64,000 nt of DNA from an uncultured Bacillales bacterium (lineage in GTDB: Bacteria > Bacillota_I > Bacilli_A > RFN20 > CAG-449). The notes under the pieces were generated by a model, which ran no database searches, was not told the DNA's origin, and was given only the letters and a program-made list of their open reading frames with translations. The translations under genes were made by a program, and so were the position numbers. The stretch covers positions 56,079 through 120,078 of the forward strand of contig CAMPBT010000003.1 in the NCBI GenBank assembly GCA_946641515.1, given 5' to 3'. Below are positions 3,305 to 62,045 of the stretch, one piece after another (the stretch's first letter is position 1; every line of letters starts with the position of its first letter).

Positions 3305-4495
3305 ATGAATTTTATTTTCGTATCGCCTGATTTTCCAAATACTTATTATAATTTCTGTAAAGAACTAAAAAAGCAAGGCGTCACAGTACTTGGAATATCA
3401 TCCACTCCATATGATCAATTGTCACAAGATTGCCGCGATTCTTTAACAGAATATTATCGTGTAGATAATATGGAAGATTATTCTCAAATGTTTAAAGCAG
3501 TAGCATTCTTCTCTTTTAAATATGGAAAAATTGACTTTATTGAATCTAATAATGAATATTGGCTAGAACAAGACGCTAAACTAAGATCTGACTTCAATAT
3601 TAAAACTGGAAAGAAGATTGAAGAAATGGCAGTTTTCAAATCCAAAGAAGCAATGAAAGAAGCTTATAAAAAAGCTAACGTTCCTGTCGCTCGTCACCAC
3701 ATTCCTACAACCTTAGAAGAAGGTAAAAAGTTCATCAAGTTAGTAGGATATCCAGTTGTAGTAAAACCAGATAATGGAGTAGGTGCACAAGCAACTTATA
3801 AAATTTCTTCTGATAAAGAGCTAGAGGATTTCTATAAAGCTTTACCAAAAAGAAAATATATCATGGAAGAATTTATCAATGGAGATTTAATCTCTTTTGA
3901 TGGAGTAGTTGATTCACATTCTAATCCAGTTTTCTTCTCTAATGAAGTCTTCCCTGAACAAGCTATGGATATCGTCAATGAATTAAAAGATGATTTCTAT
4001 TATTCATCTAAAGAATGCCCTAAAGATTTAGAAGAAGTAGGAAGAAGAGTATTAAAAGCTTTTGAGCCAAAACAAAGATGGTTCCATATGGAATTCTTTA
4101 GACTTAGAGAAGACCATCCTTATCTTGGCCCAAAAGGCACTATATGCGGGCTTGAAGTTAACATGAGATGTCCAGGAGGATATACTCCAGATATGGTCAA
4201 CTGGGCTCATTCAATTAACTCCTACAAAATTTGGGCGGATATCATCGTTAAAGATATGACTGATGAAGCAATGAATTTACCACAATATTACTGTGCAACA
4301 TACGGTAGAAGAGATGGTAAAAACTATAAACATTCTTCTGCAGAAATCTATGATAAATATATGGGAGAAATTGTAGACCATAAGAGAATGCCTGATATTC
4401 TTTCAGATGATATGGGAAATGATTGTTGGTTTGCAAAATTCGACACCTTCGAGCAAATGGAAGAATTCAAGAATTATCTTTCTGAACTAAAATAA
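3305..4495 (+). CDS. ATP-grasp domain protein (carboxylate-amine ligase-like)
   Basis: 396 aa. Central region GYPVVVKPDNGVGAQATYKI...EEFINGDLISFDGVV resembles the ATP-grasp nucleotide-binding core. Terminator hairpin at 4531-4562. Confidence 0.6.
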   Translation: MNFIFVSPDFPNTYYNFCKELKKQGVTVLGISSTPYDQLSQDCRDSLTEYYRVDNMEDYSQMFKAVAFFSFKYGKIDFIESNNEYWLEQDAKLRSDFNIKTGKKIEEMAVFKSKEAMKEAYKKANVPVARHHIPTTLEEGKKFIKLVGYPVVVKPDNGVGAQATYKISSDKELEDFYKALPKRKYIMEEFINGDLISFDGVVDSHSNPVFFSNEVFPEQAMDIVNELKDDFYYSSKECPKDLEEVGRRVLKAFEPKQRWFHMEFFRLREDHPYLGPKGTICGLEVNMRCPGGYTPDMVNWAHSINSYKIWADIIVKDMTDEAMNLPQYYCATYGRRDGKNYKHSSAEIYDKYMGEIVDHKRMPDILSDDMGNDCWFAKFDTFEQMEEFKNYLSELK

Positions 4496-38127: not shown

Positions 38128-38152
38128 TTTTTTAAAGACGTTTCGTGCCAAA
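38128..38152 (+). promoter_or_regulatory. conserved TTTTTTAAAGnnTTTCGTGCCAAA box (copy 1) upstream of cassette 1
   Basis: TTTTTTAAAGACGTTTCGTGCCAAA. Related ATGCCAAAAAAATG at 38102-38117. The same box recurs at 49165-49190, 49391-49410, 50763-50841 and, inverted, at 52641-52680. Confidence 0.5.
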
Positions 38153-38270
38153 TTTTTGGATACTTATGTAACGCCTCTACTTTTATATCCTTTTATTAAG
38201 TATGATAATCGAGGCTTTTGAAAAAAGGCACGCGAATAAAATCATTAGTATAAATAAAGGAGAAAGAAAT

Positions 38271-38765
38271 ATGAAGTTATTAAATAGAGTTACATTATTA
38301 TCAGTCTTAGGTATCTCAGCATTAGTAGGTACAGGTTACGCTGCATGGACATTCTCTGCATCAGCAGAAAACAAAACAGCAAACGCAGCACTCTTAATCA
38401 CAGATGCAAACACTGTTGGTGAAATCTCATTCAAAACAAATACAGCAAAATTCACTTTAGATCAATCAGGTATCACATGGGAAGGTGAAATCGTTGCAGA
38501 TTATTCTTCAGTTGGTTCAGAAGTTGAAGATCCATCAATTGAAAAATCATGGACAGCAGCAATTCCTGCAGAATTAGCAACATACGTTACATTCGTAGAT
38601 GCTTCAACAACAATCTCAGGCACATGGGAAGATGATGTTGCAATCGTTTTACCAGAACTCGTTTACACAGCAAACAAGCCAACAACAAAATCAGCTTACG
38701 ATACAATGGTTAGCTTAATCTCAGAATCAAATATCACATTCACATTCTCAGCAACAATTGCATAA
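38271..38765 (+). CDS. small exported TasA/camelysin-like protein with SipW-cognate-type signal peptide (paralog A1)
   Basis: ORF 38202..38765. Start preferred at ATG 38271, with AAAGGAGAAAG RBS. N-terminus MKLLNRVTLLSVLGISALVGTGYAAWTFSAS. C-terminus ...NITFTFSATIA. Paralogous to 50973..51503 and 53022..53507. Confidence 0.7.
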   Translation: MKLLNRVTLLSVLGISALVGTGYAAWTFSASAENKTANAALLITDANTVGEISFKTNTAKFTLDQSGITWEGEIVADYSSVGSEVEDPSIEKSWTAAIPAELATYVTFVDASTTISGTWEDDVAIVLPELVYTANKPTTKSAYDTMVSLISESNITFTFSATIA

Positions 38766-38865
38766 TATATTTAATTAACTTACATATATAATAAATCGGC
38801 CGTAGTTCAGAAATGCACTTCGGCCATTATCATAAATAATGGTTCAAAGAAAGGAGGTACCAGTT

Positions 38866-39801
38866 ATGAAAAAAATCAAAATGATCTTAACAGCATTAAT
38901 TGGTGCTCTATTTCTTGGAACAGCCGCTGCTACAGTAGCTACAACAGGATTTGCAGCATGGACATTCTCTTCAAATTCTTACAACACTCAATCAATCAGA
39001 GGTGCAATAAACGAATGGGAATTTGCTTCTTATGAAAGCATCTTTGAATTTGATGAAGAAACAGGAACTATCTTATACATCAAACAAATCATTGATGAAA
39101 ATGGAACAGTCACTGTACCAAATGAAATTAACGGTGTCCCAGTTACACATATTGACAAGTATGCATTTAGCAATCAGCCTAGTTTAACATCAATTGTTAT
39201 CGAAGCAGAAAACTTAACAATTGAAAGCTATGCTTTCTATGGTGACTACAACTTAAAAGAAATCACTTTACCTTCTTCAACAAAATTACTCAAATATTCA
39301 TTTGCTAATTCAGGATCATATAACTCAGATACAAAGACATATTCAATTGACAGCGTTACATTCACAGGAAGCGCTACTGAATTAACAGGTAACCAAGTAT
39401 TCAAAGGATTAGAAATTAACACAATTACAATCCCTGCAATCGTTACTAACGTTGAAAAATCATTCTTCGATGGTGTTGAAGATTACGAAATGATCAATTA
39501 CGGTGGATCTGTTGAAGACTTCGTTGGTACAGATCATAACAACGATACATATTCAATCTTTGAAGGTTTAGTTTATAACTTACGTAATAGAAATGCTGGT
39601 ACATATGCTTACCAAGCTCCAACAGCATTAACAATCTCTGGCAGAGTATTCTACTTAAATCAAAGCAACTTTACACAGAACTTATTACATTACTACGCAG
39701 AAGATGGTTCATATATTGTATATAACTTTAACAATCGTGTTAAGGTTAGCGGCAGCACATACGATAACTCAAATTGCTACTATTATTACATTGCAGAATA
39801 A
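38866..39801 (+). CDS. exported BspA-type leucine-rich-repeat (LRR_5-like) protein with SipW-cognate-type signal peptide (paralog B1)
   Basis: ORF 38839..39801. Start preferred at ATG 38866, with AAAGGAGG RBS. N-terminus MKKIKMILTALIGALFLGTAAATVATTGFAAWTFSS. LRR_5-like repeats (VTVPNEINGVPVTHIDKYAFSNQPSLTSIVI...). Terminator at 39802-39840. Confidence 0.65.
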   Translation: MKKIKMILTALIGALFLGTAAATVATTGFAAWTFSSNSYNTQSIRGAINEWEFASYESIFEFDEETGTILYIKQIIDENGTVTVPNEINGVPVTHIDKYAFSNQPSLTSIVIEAENLTIESYAFYGDYNLKEITLPSSTKLLKYSFANSGSYNSDTKTYSIDSVTFTGSATELTGNQVFKGLEINTITIPAIVTNVEKSFFDGVEDYEMINYGGSVEDFVGTDHNNDTYSIFEGLVYNLRNRNAGTYAYQAPTALTISGRVFYLNQSNFTQNLLHYYAEDGSYIVYNFNNRVKVSGSTYDNSNCYYYYIAE

Positions 39802-40019
39802 AATGCAAAACGGCTCAATGAGCCGTTTTCTTTTGCATTAAGCACAAATTACAATTACATTTATATAAATCTCTTAAATAGGCTTAAACTAATAAATAAC
39901 AAGCATTCACAGTTTAATAATAATATTAAAAATTACAAAGAACATATTTCTCTTTGGCATATTTTTTACATCTAAATAAAGTAAATCGAGTAGGGAGTAA
40001 AATTAGATAATTTCCTCTC

Positions 40020-40560
40020 CCTCTCACACCACGTAACGTGCCGTTCGGCATTACGCGGTTCAACTTACTTTTAAAGTATGCCTTGACATACTTTCCGCTT
40101 CTTCTCCTTTCCGCTTCTAAGATTTATTTCCTACGTATTGGATATTCTTTGAGATACGCTCATACCTTTTCCTGTCGGATATACCTTAGAAACATACATT
40201 TGTTAAAGCGATGTAAATTGTTTGGTCCTTCCTCTACTGAGTACTATGACCTCTGCTGACTTCCTATAGTTCGCTTTTCTAGGATTTCTCCTCTATAGGA
40301 CCTCACGGGATAAGTTATATATCTTTCCTCGTTTACCTACCTAATTTACGGATTAAGATTACGTTTGCCTTTTGGACTTTATTGCTTTTGGTCAACTTGT
40401 CCACTTAATTCGCCTTGATATTAGGTTTCTATTCGTTAGGCCACGATTTCGCTATCCCTTCTTTTCATGCGTAGTTACCTAGAGGCACTTTGGGAGTCGC
40501 TATCGGGTTGGTCGGCAAATACCTCTCTTCGGACTTTCATCGTAGATATATGACATGCCC
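40020..40560 (-). ncRNA. ORF-free, strand-asymmetric (purine-rich on minus strand) structured region; candidate large ncRNA of unassigned class
   Basis: About 540 nt with no credible ORF; the 73-aa frame at 40038..40259 is low-complexity. Multiple local hairpins, e.g. CGTAATGCCGAACGGCACGTTACG and GAAAGTATGTCAAGGCATACTTT. Bounded by the LRR-gene terminator at 39802-39840 and the rpsR terminator at 40566-40600. Strand assignment is tentative. Confidence 0.3.
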
Positions 40561-49464: not shown

Positions 49465-50499
49465 ATGACCACTTTTGCAACAGTAATTGTATTAATTATA
49501 TTGTCATTAATTATTTTCGCCTTTATTGGCGTTGCGTTATATTCTATTTTTAAATCAGAAAAAATTATTGTAAGTAGAAAAGAACGTGACCAGTTGATAA
49601 TTAAAGAACAGCAAAAAGAAAAGAAACCATCTAAAGCATCTAAAACTACTTCAATAGTATTTACAATCATTGGATATGTCATTGTATTTGGAATCTTAAT
49701 CTTTGAAGGATTTGCAGTTATTACTAATTCATCAAATAACTTATTGTTCATCGGAAACAATGCAAATTTAGTAGTAGCATCAGATTCTATGTCTACTATT
49801 GATAGTTCCGCTCAATTAGAAGCAAATGGTGGTTATTTGACAGACGATATGTTAAATGACCAATTCCAGATTGGAGATATTCTCTCTTTCTCAAAATTAC
49901 CATCTACAGAAAAAGAATTATTATCTTATACAGAAACCGGAGAACTAGAATATGTTGATGAATTAAATAAAAAAGTCAATTCTCCATATTTATATAAAGT
50001 ATTCGCATTCAAATACACTTTACCTGAAAAAGGTGAATCAATCGTATTACATAGACTTGTAGAAATTAGAGAAGTCTCTACTGCAAGTGGATCAACATAT
50101 CAATATGTTTTCATAGGAGATAAATATCCAAAATCAAGCCAAGTAGTAACTTATAAGAGTTTACTAGGTATTTATACTAGAGGAAGAATATCAGGGCTCG
50201 GATATCCAATTTTATTCTTAGGATCTGCTTATGGAGCCTACTCAGTTCTTGGAGCGTTATTCATTATTATCGCGACATCATACTTTACTAAAAAATTATC
50301 TAAGCTCTATTCAGATAGATATGACCAAATCAAAAAAGAAAAATTCGATACAGAATTCTCTTCAGACACATTTAAGAATCGTAGGCATGAAGTAGAAGAA
50401 AAAGTAATCGAAGCTGAAGAAGTTAAAGTCATCCCAAAAGATCATCAATCTCAAGAAGATGATAATTCAGATATTGGAAGTCTAAAGAAGAGAGATTAA
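49465..50499 (+). CDS. candidate ER/archaeal-type (SipW-like, Ser/His) signal peptidase I with extended architecture
   Basis: 344 aa. N-terminal TM (FATVIVLIILSLIIFAFIGVALY). Box-B-like VVASDSMSTI (Ser). Box-D-like IVLHRLVEI (His, not Lys). GDK segment. C-terminal TM (ILFLGSAYGAYSVLGALFIIIATSYF), as in SipW. Sits between cassettes of SipW-cognate-signal proteins. RBS AAGGAGGG. Confidence 0.5.
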   Translation: MTTFATVIVLIILSLIIFAFIGVALYSIFKSEKIIVSRKERDQLIIKEQQKEKKPSKASKTTSIVFTIIGYVIVFGILIFEGFAVITNSSNNLLFIGNNANLVVASDSMSTIDSSAQLEANGGYLTDDMLNDQFQIGDILSFSKLPSTEKELLSYTETGELEYVDELNKKVNSPYLYKVFAFKYTLPEKGESIVLHRLVEIREVSTASGSTYQYVFIGDKYPKSSQVVTYKSLLGIYTRGRISGLGYPILFLGSAYGAYSVLGALFIIIATSYFTKKLSKLYSDRYDQIKKEKFDTEFSSDTFKNRRHEVEEKVIEAEEVKVIPKDHQSQEDDNSDIGSLKKRD

Positions 50500-50762
50500 G
50501 ACTCACTACCGTTCAAAATGGACGGTAGTTTTTTTATTATAAAATCACTTTGCAAATTACTTATAATCTGTAAAGTTACAAACGTTTATCCCAAAAAATG
50601 TTAAACTTTTAACCCTACATTTGTAACATTTTTGGTATAAAACTGAAAGTGTATCTCTCAATGGAGCATCAAGAAAAGAACATTTGTTCCTTTCTTTGAT
50701 TTTCGAGTCAAATTTTTACTATTTTAAAAAGGAACATTTTAACATATTTCGTTTAAAATCTT

Positions 50763-50841
50763 GTCGTTTTGTGCCAAATATTAGTTACATTGTGCCAGTG
50801 TTTGAATAATTTTATGTTAAATTGGTCGTTTTGTGCCAAAT
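50763..50841 (+). promoter_or_regulatory. three CGTGCCA-family boxes (GTCGTTTTGTGCCAAAT x2 plus TTGTGCCAGTG) upstream of cassette 2
   Basis: GTCGTTTTGTGCCAAAT at 50763-50779 and 50825-50841. ACATTGTGCCAGTG at 50787-50800. Confidence 0.5.
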
Positions 50842-50972
50842 TTAGAAATTCCTATGAAAATTGCCTTTTTATAGCCTAAATCTATTATATGATGAAGGTG
50901 TCTTCAGGAGAGGAAGATAAAAACTAACCCATCTATTAAATGGATTAATTAAATAAAAGGAGAGTAATTATT

Positions 50973-51503
50973 ATGAAATTATTAAATAGAGTCACATTAG
51001 TATCAGTCTTAGGCGTAGCAGCTGTCATCGGTACAGGTTACGCTGCATGGACATTCTCAGCAGACACAACTGCAAACGCTAACGCAAATGTATTAATCAC
51101 ATCAGCATCAGAACAGGCAGGTACAATCACATTTGATAAAACTGTTAAATTAGTACTTGATCAAGGTTGGATTGGTTGGATTGATGCAGGAGTAGCTCCA
51201 AAAGATGCATACACTAACGAAGATGCACTTGCTTCAATCGTACCAACATTAACTCCATATGCAGGTTCTGAAACATTAGTAAGCGAATACGCATTAACTT
51301 GTTCAGTTAATTACGGCAATTTTACAAATTACTTAAACTTCGGTGCTTTCGCAACAACATGGGAATCAGGTTCAGCAGTTGCTTTACCAACAGTTTCTTG
51401 GAAAGATGGAATGAAGCCAACAACATTAACTGAATACAATACAATGAAAACTGCACTTCAAAATTTACAAATTGTCTTTACATTTAATGCAGACGTTGCT
51501 TAA
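50973..51503 (+). CDS. small exported TasA/camelysin-like protein with SipW-cognate-type signal peptide (paralog A2)
   Basis: 176 aa. MKLLNRVTLVSVLGVAAVIGTGYAAWTFSAD. C-terminus ...QIVFTFNADVA. The first about 100 nt are roughly 85% identical to 38271... at the DNA level. Confidence 0.7.
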   Translation: MKLLNRVTLVSVLGVAAVIGTGYAAWTFSADTTANANANVLITSASEQAGTITFDKTVKLVLDQGWIGWIDAGVAPKDAYTNEDALASIVPTLTPYAGSETLVSEYALTCSVNYGNFTNYLNFGAFATTWESGSAVALPTVSWKDGMKPTTLTEYNTMKTALQNLQIVFTFNADVA

Positions 51504-51640
51504 TTAGATTAAAAAAAATGGCCGTAGTTCCTAGTGAGCTTCGGCCATTATATAGATATAACCATAATAAATATATATAAGTTAAATATTTATAATTATA
51601 TTAAATAATAAAAACCTACCACTATGAAAGGAGGGCAAAT

Positions 51641-52489
51641 ATGAGAAAGCATAAATTTTTAACTTTCCTATTAGCGTACAGTATCCTTTTTAGTGGTGTA
51701 ATGCTTAGTAGTTACGCTACTAAAGGCTATGCAGCCTTTACTTTCAGCGCTGAATCAACTAGTATAAATCCTGTTCCAACAGTAGTAACAAATTGGACAT
51801 TCAACAATCAAGAGCCAGGAACAACTATTGTAATCGATGGAAATGGTAATGCTACAATTTCTGGTGGAGAGCATGATGGTGAATCAGTAGAAATTACATA
51901 CGTTACTGATGATGAAGGAAATAGTTTAATCAATAATGGTTCTGTAACAACACAAATTGAAATTAATGAAGACGGAACAGTTTCAATCACTCAATTTGAT
52001 GTCACACCTGGATCAGGTTCAATTGGAGACATCAATTATATCTTCTATGGTGAAACTTTATATTTACCAAGCCAATACGTTATTGATGGGCAAGTATATC
52101 CTGTTTCTTCATTAGATCAACCGCTTAAAGTTGAAAAAGCTAAACTTTTAATTGGCATTGCAGCAGTTAACAATGTAATTGTACCTGAAGGATATGTATC
52201 CTTATGTGCTGAAGCATTCTACGGTAACAATTGTTCTTTCAAAACTCCAGTAGCCTTTAATTTACCTTCAACATTAACAAGTATTGGATATCACGCAATT
52301 GATTTAGCAGATAGCCCTAAAATTAATTACGCAGGTACAAAAGCTCAATTTAGAGCATTATCAAATAACTCCGGTAACTGGGTAGGAAGATCAAGCGGAT
52401 CTAACAATACTATTACAGTAACTTGTTCAGACGGAAATTTAACTGTAAGATACAATAATAATAATAATGGTACAATAACTATTTCTTAA
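51641..52489 (+). CDS. exported BspA-type LRR (LRR_5-like) protein with SipW-cognate-type signal peptide (paralog B2)
   Basis: 282 aa. MRKHKFLTFLLAYSILFSGVMLSSYATKGYAAFTFSAE. LRR_5-like segment IVPEGYVSLCAEAFYGNNCSFKTPVAFNLPSTLTSIGYHAI. C-terminal INYAGT motif shared with B1 (INYGGS). Confidence 0.65.
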   Translation: MRKHKFLTFLLAYSILFSGVMLSSYATKGYAAFTFSAESTSINPVPTVVTNWTFNNQEPGTTIVIDGNGNATISGGEHDGESVEITYVTDDEGNSLINNGSVTTQIEINEDGTVSITQFDVTPGSGSIGDINYIFYGETLYLPSQYVIDGQVYPVSSLDQPLKVEKAKLLIGIAAVNNVIVPEGYVSLCAEAFYGNNCSFKTPVAFNLPSTLTSIGYHAIDLADSPKINYAGTKAQFRALSNNSGNWVGRSSGSNNTITVTCSDGNLTVRYNNNNNGTITIS

Positions 52490-52640
52490 TTCCCCTATTA
52501 ACAAATTGTAAACTCATCTATATAATAAAAGTGTAGATGAGTTTTTTTATTAAATAATTAAAAAGAGATAAATTGATAATTTTGTTAAAGAAAATAATAT
52601 TGAATATGATACATTCAATTCTTAATGATAAATATAAAGT

Positions 52641-53021: not shown

Positions 53022-53507
53022 ATGAAACTCACAGCAAAATTAAATTTAGTTAGCATTCTTGGTTTAACAGCTATTGTTGGTGTTGGCTACGCAGCGTTTA
53101 CTTTCAGTGACGACGCTACTATATCTTCTCTCTCACAAGCTCATATCACTCAAGTACAAGAATTCGGTGAAGTCGAAGTTACAAATACAAATCTTAACAT
53201 TGTATTAGATCAAAAAGAAATCACATGGACTGGTTCAGTCAAAGCAGTTAGAAAAGGTCAATGTGCTAACTTAGATACTACTAATACATGGACTGCTACA
53301 TTATCAGATAATTTAGCATACTACGTTAGATTTGCAGGTGATGCATCTACTTATACAAACGTTGTTTGGGAAGATAACGTTGAAATTTCTCTTCCTAAAC
53401 TTGAATATGTTGAAGAACATAAACCAACAACATTATCACAATATAATGTAATGACAAGTGTTCTTGCAGGCGAAATGGTTAATTTCTCATTCACTGCAGC
53501 AAAATAA
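53022..53507 (+). CDS. small exported TasA/camelysin-like protein with SipW-cognate-type signal peptide (paralog A3, singleton)
   Basis: 161 aa. MKLTAKLNLVSILGLTAIVGVGYAAFTFSDD. C-terminus ...VNFSFTAAK. Shares the internal HKPTTLSQYNVM motif with A1 (KPTTKSAYDTM) and A2 (KPTTLTEYNTM). Confidence 0.7.
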   Translation: MKLTAKLNLVSILGLTAIVGVGYAAFTFSDDATISSLSQAHITQVQEFGEVEVTNTNLNIVLDQKEITWTGSVKAVRKGQCANLDTTNTWTATLSDNLAYYVRFAGDASTYTNVVWEDNVEISLPKLEYVEEHKPTTLSQYNVMTSVLAGEMVNFSFTAAK

Positions 53508-53599
53508 ATTTAGTTATTAGTAATTTGATAAAAATTACTCTCCAATAACAGCTCCTCTCTCTCCAATTCGAGGGGCTTTATTTTTGTCTAAAAAGCATC

Positions 53600-53637
53600 A
53601 AAAAAGTTTCCCAAAGGAAACTCTTTTTTTATTTTTA
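53600..53637. terminator. bidirectional intrinsic terminator
   Basis: AAAAAGTTTCCCAAAGGAAACTCTTTTTTTATTTTT. Serves cassette 3 on the plus strand and the BI-1-like gene on the minus strand. Confidence 0.8.
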
Positions 53638-59482: not shown

Positions 59483-59630
59483 CCTTTCAGACCTAGTACG
59501 CCCAAAAGGATAGAATAAAATACATTGTGTTAGAATCCTTCCGCTAGCATTACCTAGATCAAGTTATTGGTCCCATAAGTCACACTTATGATCTCAGCCT
59601 AGTTTACTAAGCACCCATACTAAATTGTTT
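59483..59630 (-). promoter_or_regulatory. TPP (THI-box) riboswitch with SD-sequestering terminator hairpin
   Basis: Minus-strand RNA: UGGGUGCUUAG...GGCUGAGAUCAUAAGUGUGACUUAUGGGACCAAUAACUUGAUCUAGGUAAUGCUAGCGGAAGGA matches the THI element consensus (CUGAGA, ACCUGAUCUGGAUAAUGCCAGCG-AGGGA). Expression platform CCUUUUGGGCGUACUAGGUCUGAAAGG plus U7 lies immediately before the ATG at 59474; its 3' arm holds AAAGGA (SD). Confidence 0.85.
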
Positions 59631-59639
59631 TGCAAATAA

Positions 59640-62045
59640 TTACTCACTTGCAGTTTTTAATTTTGAATCCATTTCTAACAAACTTTCCTGCTGTTTTTTA
59701 GAAGGGATTCGTGACTCAACTTTACCAGTTCTGACATCTACTGGTCTAAATTTTCTGAATGCATATTCCTTTTTAGGAGGTAATAATTTTTTTACCTTCT
59801 TTTTCTCAAAAAGTACTGGAGTTTTAAACATTGAAACTTTATTAGTACTCTTCTTTTTAGTAGGTTGAGTCTTTTCAGGAATATCTTTCTTTTCTACTTC
59901 ATTAAGTGAAGTATCATCTAAAGATTTATCTAAACTATGCTGGCACAAAGCATAGGCATTCATCGCTTTTTGTTTTTCTAATCGATGTTTATATTTTCCG
60001 TAAACAAGTAAAGCTTTTTCTTTCGCACGTTTTTGTTTGATTAACTTAACGTAAACTTGAGTAGCTTTTTCTTTAGTCATTCCTTTATTAGGGTCTAAAG
60101 AAATATAGTTATTTTGTCTTCTAAATTCATTTAAGAAATCTTCATAAGCTTTACGTCTTAATTCTTCTTTTTCATTTTCATCTAAAGTAGCTTTTTCATA
60201 AACAACTTTAACGACTTCTTTAACATTGCTTACTTCTTTATAATGCTCTTTATAAGAAGATAATTCAAGAAGAATATTAATAGCAGCATTTTCATCATGA
60301 ACTCTGTTAATAATTTCTTGTTCTTTTACTTCATTAACTTCTCTTGCTCCGTAAACTGTATTTCCTTTAGAAGGAATATGTTTAGTTCTACCTGCAAGAA
60401 GAATATTAATAGCAGCATCTTCAACATGGTTCTTATTAACAAAATCAAATGGTTTGACAGGTTTATATGTAGATACTAAAGAAGATAAATCTCCACCTTC
60501 TAAACCTAAATCAGTGAAAGATTCTCTTATAACAAATTCTTCACCGAGAACTGTATTTCCTAAAGCAGGAATATGTTTTTCTCTATTTTGTAAAAGAATA
60601 TTAACTGCAGCATCAGGATCATGTTTAGTATTAATATAATCCATCTTAGGTCTACTTAAGATAGGAGTTACTACTGGAGTAACTTTCTTAAGTGGAGAAG
60701 TAGGAAGAACTTCTTCATTATCTTCAACATAAACTTCTTCATTTGAAGAAGTAGATACTTCATTTATTAATTGAGAAGGAGTTTCTACTTCATAAGGAAC
60801 GATTACTTCATCATCATAAGAAACAACATTGTTATTGTTTTCATATTCATCTAATGGCTTAAGAGCAATATCATCCGCAACATATTTTTCGTAGAATAAT
60901 TCATCTTCTTTATTTTGAGAAATTAATGCATCTAATCCATCATCTTCAACTGCTTCAATAACAGGTTCAGCTTCAAGAACGATATCATAATCTTCATCAG
61001 CAATATAACGAACTTCTCTTTCAACAATTGGTTTTGAAGTAGAAGTAGCAGTTTCTCCAACACCTAAATCTTTAACACCTTCACCTAAAGCTTCATAATA
61101 AGCAATTTCATCAGGTGAAGATTCTTTTTTGTTTTCATCCTTGTTATCAATTGTAGCAATAGGAGAAGATTTATCTTCCTCTTCATACATAGAAATGAAT
61201 TCTTCAGATTTATTTGAATACTCTTTTCCGTGTTGGATTCTAAACTTATATTCATCTTTATCTCTATTTCTAATTAATTTATTTCTTGCTTTTTTAGCGT
61301 GTCTAATTGCACTAGGCTTTTTAAAAATTAAACCAATTAAAGAAATTATTCCAACCCATAAAAAACAAACGACAAGTACTACAACTGGTATAATAATATA
61401 TTCAAGCCAAGCAAAATCACCAATAAGTTCATTTGCTTTATCAATATAACCAGTCTTATTAACGTTATAGAAAAGATTCAAATAATTATTAGCAGCATCA
61501 GGATCTGCATAATAAATTTTTCTAATAAAGTTTTCCACAAAGGAAGTGTATAAATTAGTAAAGCCATTTAATTTAGAAGATGAAGCTTCACAAACTGTAT
61601 AATCAAATCTAGTAACAATGATTAAGAAAAAAATAAACAATGGGATTATTAAAGATAAACAAGTTTTTAGAGGAAATTTATCTAAATAATTATGATAATC
61701 ATATTTCTTTTCTTCAGCATCAGTAGGTACATAATGTTCTTTAATAACGCGAAGCATCTTCTTTTCGTTATTATTTTTAACAATTTTTGCAATGATAGAA
61801 GAAATAATAACGTAAACTAAAATAAAGATTACATTAACTAAAACTAATGATAAATAAGCAGGATATTTAAAGCCAAAATATCCATTCATTAAATTAGAAA
61901 CAAATTTAAGAATTCTACTTACAAAGAATTCACCAATAGAATAAACAAAACTAAAAAATGCTGGAAGTTGAATATCAAATCCATACACAAATAAAACAAT
62001 TGCTTCAAAGAATAATATTATCCACATCAGGAAGTATTTCTTCAT
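59640..62045 (-). CDS. large membrane-anchored protein with internal tandem repeats (hypothetical)
   Basis: 801 aa. N-terminal TM helices. Acidic low-complexity middle region. Three tandem about 45-aa repeats H(D/V)xDAA(V/I)NILLxxRxKHIPxxGNTVxG, also visible as DNA repeats at about 60250-60650. Lys-rich C-terminus. Confidence 0.45.
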   Translation of the reverse strand: MKKYFLMWIILFFEAIVLFVYGFDIQLPAFFSFVYSIGEFFVSRILKFVSNLMNGYFGFKYPAYLSLVLVNVIFILVYVIISSIIAKIVKNNNEKKMLRVIKEHYVPTDAEEKKYDYHNYLDKFPLKTCLSLIIPLFIFFLIIVTRFDYTVCEASSSKLNGFTNLYTSFVENFIRKIYYADPDAANNYLNLFYNVNKTGYIDKANELIGDFAWLEYIIIPVVVLVVCFLWVGIISLIGLIFKKPSAIRHAKKARNKLIRNRDKDEYKFRIQHGKEYSNKSEEFISMYEEEDKSSPIATIDNKDENKKESSPDEIAYYEALGEGVKDLGVGETATSTSKPIVEREVRYIADEDYDIVLEAEPVIEAVEDDGLDALISQNKEDELFYEKYVADDIALKPLDEYENNNNVVSYDDEVIVPYEVETPSQLINEVSTSSNEEVYVEDNEEVLPTSPLKKVTPVVTPILSRPKMDYINTKHDPDAAVNILLQNREKHIPALGNTVLGEEFVIRESFTDLGLEGGDLSSLVSTYKPVKPFDFVNKNHVEDAAINILLAGRTKHIPSKGNTVYGAREVNEVKEQEIINRVHDENAAINILLELSSYKEHYKEVSNVKEVVKVVYEKATLDENEKEELRRKAYEDFLNEFRRQNNYISLDPNKGMTKEKATQVYVKLIKQKRAKEKALLVYGKYKHRLEKQKAMNAYALCQHSLDKSLDDTSLNEVEKKDIPEKTQPTKKKSTNKVSMFKTPVLFEKKKVKKLLPPKKEYAFRKFRPVDVRTGKVESRIPSKKQQESLLEMDSKLKTASE

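Follow-up and report, generated by a model that had tools for sequence, protein, structure and literature searches.

The window, by which we mean the whole stretch of 64,000 nucleotides analysed here, has a G+C content of 30.4% and carries two cassettes in which a gene for a small secreted protein is followed, in the same orientation, by a gene for a larger secreted protein, with a GC-rich stem-loop lying between the two. The features that bear on this element are listed below.

38139-38155, plus strand: conserved upstream box CGTTTCGTGCCAAATTT, with a counterpart at 50827-50843
38271-38765, plus strand: cassette 1 small secreted-protein gene, 164 aa from MKLLNRV
38798-38825, plus strand: cassette 1 stem-loop GGCCGTAGTTCAGAAATGCACTTCGGCC, followed by ATTAT at 38826-38830
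38866-39801, plus strand: cassette 1 downstream gene, 311 aa, BspA-type LRR_5, N-terminal motif GFAAWTF
39807-39829, plus strand: canonical hairpin-plus-T-run terminator, end of the cassette 1 unit
49465-50499, plus strand: candidate divergent SipW/SEC11-type signal peptidase, a 344-aa membrane protein
50505-50529: terminator of the peptidase-candidate gene
50973-51503, plus strand: cassette 2 small secreted-protein gene, 176 aa
51517-51549, plus strand: cassette 2 stem-loop, core GGCCG...CGGCC at 51520-51546
51641-52489, plus strand: cassette 2 downstream gene, 282 aa, with a good RBS
52510-52544, plus strand: canonical terminator, end of the cassette 2 unit
53022-53507, plus strand: third small-gene paralog, used as an internal control, with no co-oriented gene after it
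53556-53575 and 53600-53627: U-tract terminators after the third paralog

Both cassette 1 reading frames can be opened further upstream. The start at 38202 of the small gene is probably a spurious extension of a gene that truly begins at 38271; the start at 38839 of the downstream gene is probably spurious as well, the true start being 38866, with the RBS AAAGGAGG upstream of it.

An earlier, sequence-only reading of this DNA had described a conserved stem-loop in both cassettes. The two strings it quoted are present, ATCGGCCGTAGTTCAGAAATGCACTTCGGCCATTAT at 38795-38830 and AATGGCCGTAGTTCCTAGTGAGCTTCGGCCATTAT at 51517-51551, although the cassette 1 start it gave (38786) lies about 9 nt too far upstream and its cassette 2 coordinates are off by one. 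Its placement of the hairpin holds: in each cassette the element sits past the stop codon of the small gene and before a co-oriented gene, and canonical terminators appear only after the second gene. The distance from stop codon to hairpin is 14-32 nt and that from hairpin to the next start 40-94 nt, neither being conserved. In cassette 1, and in a locus of another species that is syntenic with the cassette 2 region (L031, described below), the hairpin-to-start gap is only about 40-46 nt, a length that would hardly accommodate a promoter of its own; one could be concealed in the AT-rich spacer of cassette 2, which measures 94 nt.

The cassette 1 hairpin is built from a GGCCG stem, a U.U mismatch, the pairs AGU:ACU, a U.C mismatch, the pairs CA:UG and a GAAA loop. 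In cassette 2, where the core sequence is GGCCGTAGTTCCTAGTGAGCTTCGGCC and is again followed by ATTAT, AAU/AUU lengthens the stem, the inner stem has 5 bp and the loop is CUAGU. The flanking ATTAT is thus kept while the loops differ, as the earlier reading had it, and its extension of the stem to TGGCCG/CGGCCA is correct for cassette 2 but not for cassette 1, where a C.A mismatch occupies that pair. Folding of the RNA gave -13.5 kcal/mol for cassette 1 (z = -3.95) and -18.5 kcal/mol for cassette 2 (z = -5.74), with none of 200 shuffles as stable in either case. The pattern GGCCGTAGTTC-N(6-12)-CTTCGGCC matches exactly twice in the 64 kb, against none expected from shuffles, and GGCCG itself occurs only four times in the whole window. 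Beyond the hairpin, and with the exception of the RBS, the spacers of cassettes 1 and 2 cannot be aligned. A second, smaller foldback overlaps the cassette 1 element: CCATTAT-CATAA-ATAATGG (38824-38842) can form a 7-bp AU-rich mini-hairpin that shares with the main stem its two final bases and also covers the spurious ATG (38839). The AUUAU...AUAAU complement recurs in cassette 2 (51547-51551 with about 51565-51569) and is missing from L031; it is probably due to chance in AT-rich DNA.

No U-tract follows the stem on the plus strand, in agreement with the earlier reading. The T-tract score over the 15 nt past the stem is 1.40 in cassette 1, 1.47 in cassette 2 and 1.04 in L031, compared with 2.0-4.9 for the predicted terminators of the window and a window-wide median of 0.9. 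The hairpin is not among the predictions of a consensus terminator scan, and no terminator is predicted between the small gene and its downstream neighbour in either cassette. Canonical terminators are abundant in the window (21 found, 6.4 expected); since the organism clearly uses them, the missing U-tract is a real difference. The element resembles a canonical intrinsic terminator in being a GC-rich hairpin in an AT-rich spacer past a stop codon, but it has no sense-strand U-tract in any lineage and lies inside the apparent unit, with a co-oriented gene that has its own RBS further on, and the view that it is not a canonical terminator is borne out on both counts. A window-wide census of hairpins at dG <= -11 kcal/mol was too permissive to be useful.

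The earlier reading overlooked a run of eight A residues directly 5' of the cassette 2 stem, by virtue of which the minus strand resembles a terminator. The minus-strand T-score is 3.2-4.5 in cassette 2 itself and 3.0-4.5 when its close orthologs, where the run is A7-A8, are included, and is low elsewhere (1.27 in cassette 1, 1.43 in L031). Because the A-run is absent from cassette 1 and L031, neither it nor the terminator-like minus strand that it gives is part of the conserved element, and a minus-strand terminator was rejected as a general explanation, the A-run being confined to the cassette 2 lineage.

Conservation of the hairpin in orthologous cassettes had been set as a point on which its significance would turn, and the hairpin is present in all close orthologs as well as in the syntenic L031. 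It is identical in three close orthologs of cassette 1 (L005, L007, L019) and four of cassette 2 (L001, L002, L006, L017); L018 has one loop change with all pairs kept, and L004 has two loop changes together with two inner-stem changes that still pair (U-G to U-A and C-G to U-G). The more distant comparison comes from L031/L032, the locus of a different species that is syntenic with the cassette 2 region and whose flanking housekeeping DNA is 77.5% identical and whose proteins are 57% (peptidase), 63% (third small protein), 39% (small protein) and 41% (downstream protein) identical to those of the window. The junction there reads AUGGCCG-AGCUUC-GAAA-GAUGUU-CGGCCAUUAAC. UGGCCG...CGGCCAUUA is kept in L031/L032, so that all five G-C pairs at the base persist together with the 3' AUUA; the inner stem has another sequence and is still paired, the loop is GAAA as in cassette 1 (and hence in two of the three lineages), and the fold is at -16.2 kcal/mol.

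In a structure-guided alignment, made by hand from five distinct sequences of three lineages, none of the ten pairs is broken, six being invariant, one changed on one side and three changed on both sides, a covariation result that depends on the alignment: a sequence-only alignment (MAFFT/RNAalifold) misplaces the indels and returns no two-sided pair changes and some broken pairs. Shuffling of the inner segment alone gave p = 0.15 for cassette 1, 0.07 for cassette 2 and 0.009 for L031. Together these comparisons lend moderate support to selected pairing. The clamp remains fully G/C and intact at 30% GC, while the surrounding spacer has become unalignable. Within the inner stem, the proximal part (U AGUU ... 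CUU) is common to cassettes 1 and 2 and missing in L031, and the spacing from GGCCG to CGGCC is 16 nt in L031, 17 nt in cassette 2 and 18 nt in cassette 1. The invariance of the basal stem and AUUA, which is no evidence for pairing, suggests sequence-specific recognition.

The hairpin is found in one kind of gene arrangement only. The third small-gene paralog has no GGCCG hairpin and is followed by ordinary U-tract terminators instead. Distant homologous clusters (L003, L021, L022, L026-L030, L034 and L035), in which the small protein is 26-43% identical and the order is small gene, peptidase, third gene, have no hairpin at the small-gene junction, and at 12-21 nt these junctions offer no room for one. 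The element is therefore confined to homologs in which the small gene directly precedes a larger secreted-protein gene, which ties it to a lineage-specific arrangement.

Searches beyond these relatives returned no known family and no further copies. Rfam, run over the whole window at the gathering threshold, has no family for the hairpin, and a search of 38700-38900 at E up to 10 gave only noise (14.6 bits at most, compared with gathering scores of at least 37). A covariance-model search of 160 kb of related loci recovered the known copies only. Scanning 185,579 genomes of bacterial and archaeal species (GTDB representatives), a set that includes neither the species of the window nor any close hairpin-bearing relative, with GGCCGTAGTTN{5,13}CTTCGGCCAT produced nine matches, about the number expected by chance; these are in unrelated, mostly high-GC taxa and mostly inside coding-like sequence. 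A dispersed repeat of the REP/MITE kind was rejected, the two copies in 64 kb both lying at homologous junctions with no more in the 160 kb of related loci. Several other resemblances failed when cassette 1, cassette 2 and L031 were compared by eye: a likeness to the 5' end and D-arm of a tRNA (GTAGTTCAG), the REP 'GTAG' tetranucleotide, a sigma-54 promoter, a K-turn, a UUCG tetraloop and attC.

The proteins on either side of the element are themselves unusual. The small proteins of cassettes 1 and 2 are 39% identical and belong to a rare family, with 5 and then 22 members found among 5.8 billion proteins, all from metagenomes. Neither Pfam nor NCBIfam nor the sequences of the PDB contained a match to the small proteins, and a Foldseek search of the PDB with an AlphaFold model of pLDDT 56 returned nothing at E < 0.5, the model being too poor to exclude a shared fold. 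The earlier description of the small protein as TasA-like has its only support in a TasA-like signal-peptide motif and a SipW/SEC11-like peptidase nearby; it finds no backing in matches to TasA among Pfam, NCBIfam, PDB sequences or folds. That the small protein is the major subunit of a fibre is a conjecture. All five secreted proteins, three small and two larger, have the N-terminal motif G[YF]AA[WF]TFS past a hydrophobic segment. The two downstream proteins have only about 85 N-terminal residues in common, and the earlier assignment of an LRR gene to both cassettes stands for cassette 1, which has an LRR_5 domain, but not for cassette 2, where Pfam detects no LRR. The cassette 2 downstream protein is 41% identical to a 279-aa protein of L031 and related to the third gene of the distant clusters.

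The 344-aa membrane protein has family members next to all homologs of the small gene (L031:2785-3849, L003:856-1704, L026:6594-7361, L034:1531-2382 and others). No Pfam or NCBIfam model reaches threshold on it. A profile of the family matches the human signal-peptidase catalytic subunits SEC11C/SEC11A (E = 1.8e-6 to 5.8e-6) in the region of the HR...GDN boxes, and Ser108, His196-Arg197 and Gly218-Asp219 are invariant among its members. The protein looks like a signal peptidase of the SipW/ER type, so divergent that current family models overlook it. Given this match and these invariant residues, a SipW-type secretion setting is plausible.

Two further segments are conserved along with the hairpin. 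In both cassettes and in L031 the small genes that bear the hairpin are preceded, some 130-145 nt ahead of their start codons, by the box CGTTTYGTGCCAARTTT, which in L031 is found at about 4100-4120 ahead of a 179-aa gene; it is duplicated in L004 and L017 and is missing ahead of the third small gene. The box probably serves the hairpin-bearing cassettes as a common promoter, regulator or alternative-sigma site. The first 90 nt of the small genes (38271-38360, 50973-51062 and L031:4251-4340) are 79-86% identical as DNA, 86% between cassettes 1 and 2 and 81% between cassette 2 and L031, while their remaining parts hardly align at all; over this 90-nt stretch the orthologous third small genes reach only 58% identity. 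We considered concerted evolution of cassettes 1 and 2 and set it aside, the difference between 86% and 81% being unconvincing. Basal stem, AUUA tail, upstream box and first 90 nt are thus conserved in sequence only in the hairpin-bearing class.

The reading that we favour, and judge probable though by no means secure, is that the hairpin is a read-through intercistronic stem-loop, of the kind known from selective RNA processing and stabilisation (SRPS) or from weak internal terminators, that favours the transcript of the upstream small gene. The small secreted-protein gene, the hairpin, the larger secreted-protein gene and a canonical terminator would lie in this order on a two-gene transcript. 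The element itself combines a clamp of five G-C pairs that never varies, an inner stem that varies yet pairs, and a stable loop. RNA polymerase would mostly read through it because there is no U-tract, and any termination at the AUUAU tail would be weak. Once transcripts had ended there, or once an endonuclease had cut the downstream AU-rich spacer, the hairpin would block 3'-to-5' exonucleases; the message of the small gene would then persist and the downstream part decay, giving more small protein than downstream protein, on the assumption that an excess of the small protein is required. In the present evidence, stabilisation, processing and partial termination would all look alike. The sequence invariance of the basal stem and AUUA suggests something beyond the needs of a pure exonuclease block.

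Comparable elements have been demonstrated by experiment in cellulolytic Clostridia, where stem-loops located 3' of the more abundant gene, mostly without U-tracts, protect processed transcripts, and where the dG of the stem-loop correlates with the transcript ratio (PMC4423207). Such SRPS stem-loops are known from Clostridium/Ruminiclostridium operons such as cip-cel (PMC4423207, PMC8219983, PMC10311766). The element of the window resembles them in being a stem-loop in the spacer of co-oriented genes, directly 3' of one of them and usually without a classical U-tract, in its low-GC host of Gram-positive type, and in its association with secreted proteins that might assemble in unequal amounts. 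A stem-loop of about -10 kcal/mol or below, sited where the upstream gene ends, is the form that SRPS elements and weak internal terminators take and that the hairpin shows, and its structure has been kept in evolution together with its gene across five distinct sequences, as far as the alignment can be relied upon. Its stability falls inside the reported range of -6.6 to -31.8 kcal/mol (PMC4423207), but at about -12 to -19 kcal/mol it occupies the weaker half of it. A further difference is that paralogs and species alike retain the sequence of the basal stem and of the AUUA; for SRPS loops no such requirement has been described.

A second group of relatives is formed by weak internal terminators. 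In cellulolytic Clostridia, stem-loops with tails of fewer than five U act in this way, with an efficiency of about 9-33% for three-U tails (PMC9045158). The Type II internal terminators between substrate-binding-protein and permease genes of ABC importers (PMC9045158) share with the hairpin a GC-rich stem-loop past the first, presumably more abundant gene and a short interrupted tail, here AUUAU. The cassette 2 tail can moreover pair with upstream A residues, as in Type II/IV elements (PMC9045158). The difference is that no more than two U stand in a row in the tail here, for which low termination would be expected from the same data (PMC9045158). More distantly, the logic recalls an older set of examples. 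Classical intercistronic stabilisers and attenuators, from pilus and other operons, include papB-papA processing with a hairpin after papA, fimA, the hairpins of the puf operon and the malE-malF REP. There too a hairpin past the gene for a major subunit leads to an excess of its message over those of accessory genes; those systems, however, belong to Proteobacteria with RNase E, whereas the hairpin here is not a dispersed REP and follows a gene whose product is only a putative major subunit.

Three other accounts of the same anatomy have to be weighed. The hairpin might have no present function on the sense strand, being either a relic of a former terminator, kept by chance or by local gene conversion between the paralogous cassettes, or a minus-strand terminator or insulator against antisense transcription into the small gene. 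The A7-A8 run that gives the minus strand of cassette 2 and its close orthologs a hairpin followed by U7-8 fits this, as does the rearrangement of gene order relative to the small gene-peptidase-third gene order of the distant clusters, in which a terminator could have been stranded, and the proximal inner stem common to cassettes 1 and 2 and lacking in L031. We nevertheless regard it as unlikely: the minus-strand T-tract is not conserved, a neutral GC-rich stem should erode at 30% GC and yet the G/C clamp is intact in three lineages whose housekeeping DNA is 77.5% identical and whose spacers are unalignable, and the inner stems differ between lineages yet pair. The signal-peptide segment, at the identities given above, shows little sign of recent conversion. 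Rather less credible still, in our estimation, is a site that acts as DNA, whether a palindromic operator for a dimeric regulator, a piece of the downstream gene's promoter, an attC-like or other recombination site at the edge of a mobile cassette, or a REP/MITE-like repeat. The half-sites GGCCG/CGGCC and the flanking ATTA are invariant in sequence beyond what complementarity calls for, a weak promoter-like match (TTCAGA-16-TATCAT) overlies the cassette 1 hairpin, and the common upstream box suggests that the cassettes are co-regulated; but a half-site spacing that varies between 18, 17 and 16 nt sits ill with a rigid dimer or a promoter. The promoter-like match, which is not conserved in cassette 2 or L031, was rejected as a promoter, and such matches are as frequent in shuffled sequence (96 found, 97.8 expected). 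Two copies per 64 kb, with no others in 160 kb of related DNA and only chance-level matches in the 185,579 genomes, are hard to reconcile with a repeat, and no integrase or transposase gene was found adjacent to the cassettes. We hold this account to be very improbable.

The remaining account concerns the downstream gene. In Firmicutes, 5'-terminal hairpins stabilise mRNAs, and downstream structure can guide cleavage by RNase Y. The hairpin could be a processing signal and 5' stabiliser of the downstream gene: an endonuclease such as RNase Y would cut in the AU-rich sequence immediately ahead of it, and the hairpin would then shield the downstream mRNA from 5'-to-3' decay by RNase J. The benefit would go to the downstream protein and not to the small one, or the half-lives of the two messages would become independent. 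The anatomy, a stable hairpin that lacks a U-tract and lies between AU-rich single-stranded flanks, is what either account calls for. Two points make the 5' version quite unlikely in our view: in a systematic Clostridium data set the stem-loops occur mainly at the 3' ends of processed transcripts (27 of 33) rather than at 5' ends (PMC4423207), and the hairpin lies at a variable 40-94 nt from the downstream start, its distance from the small gene's stop codon being the more constant one at 14-32 nt.

If the read-through stem-loop is the right reading, the hairpin would be a cis element that sets the ratio of two secreted proteins in an uncharacterised system dependent on a SipW-like peptidase, and the stoichiometry rule of stem-loops in cellulolytic Clostridia would extend to another low-GC lineage and another class of surface protein. 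The element itself is ordinary in type; the more novel part is the protein system around it, which has so far been met only in a handful of metagenome contigs, with sheep rumen suggested as the habitat by two sample names. A more speculative extension, to which we attach little probability, takes the basal stem and AUUA as a sequence-specific site that a dedicated nuclease or RNA-binding protein, acting in trans, would recognise; upstream box, first 90 nt and hairpin would then make up a small post-transcriptional regulon coordinating the unlinked cassettes of an undescribed SipW-dependent surface-protein system. In a variant of this idea, the conserved 5' coding segment and the 3' hairpin may be gene-conversion boundaries that serve to diversify the mature protein.

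Other structured elements were noted in the window. Pieces of a group II intron, D1-D4 (Rfam RF02001, 96.6 bits; RF01998, 46.9 bits), lie on the minus strand at 40225-40484, directly downstream of a minus-strand terminator hairpin at 40597-40573, and the intron looks truncated. Bacterial class C introns typically insert after terminators. A tmRNA gene is found at 853-1226 on the minus strand (127 bits), and a TPP riboswitch at 59518-59628 on the minus strand (60.9 bits), upstream of an 801-aa ORF at 59640-62045.
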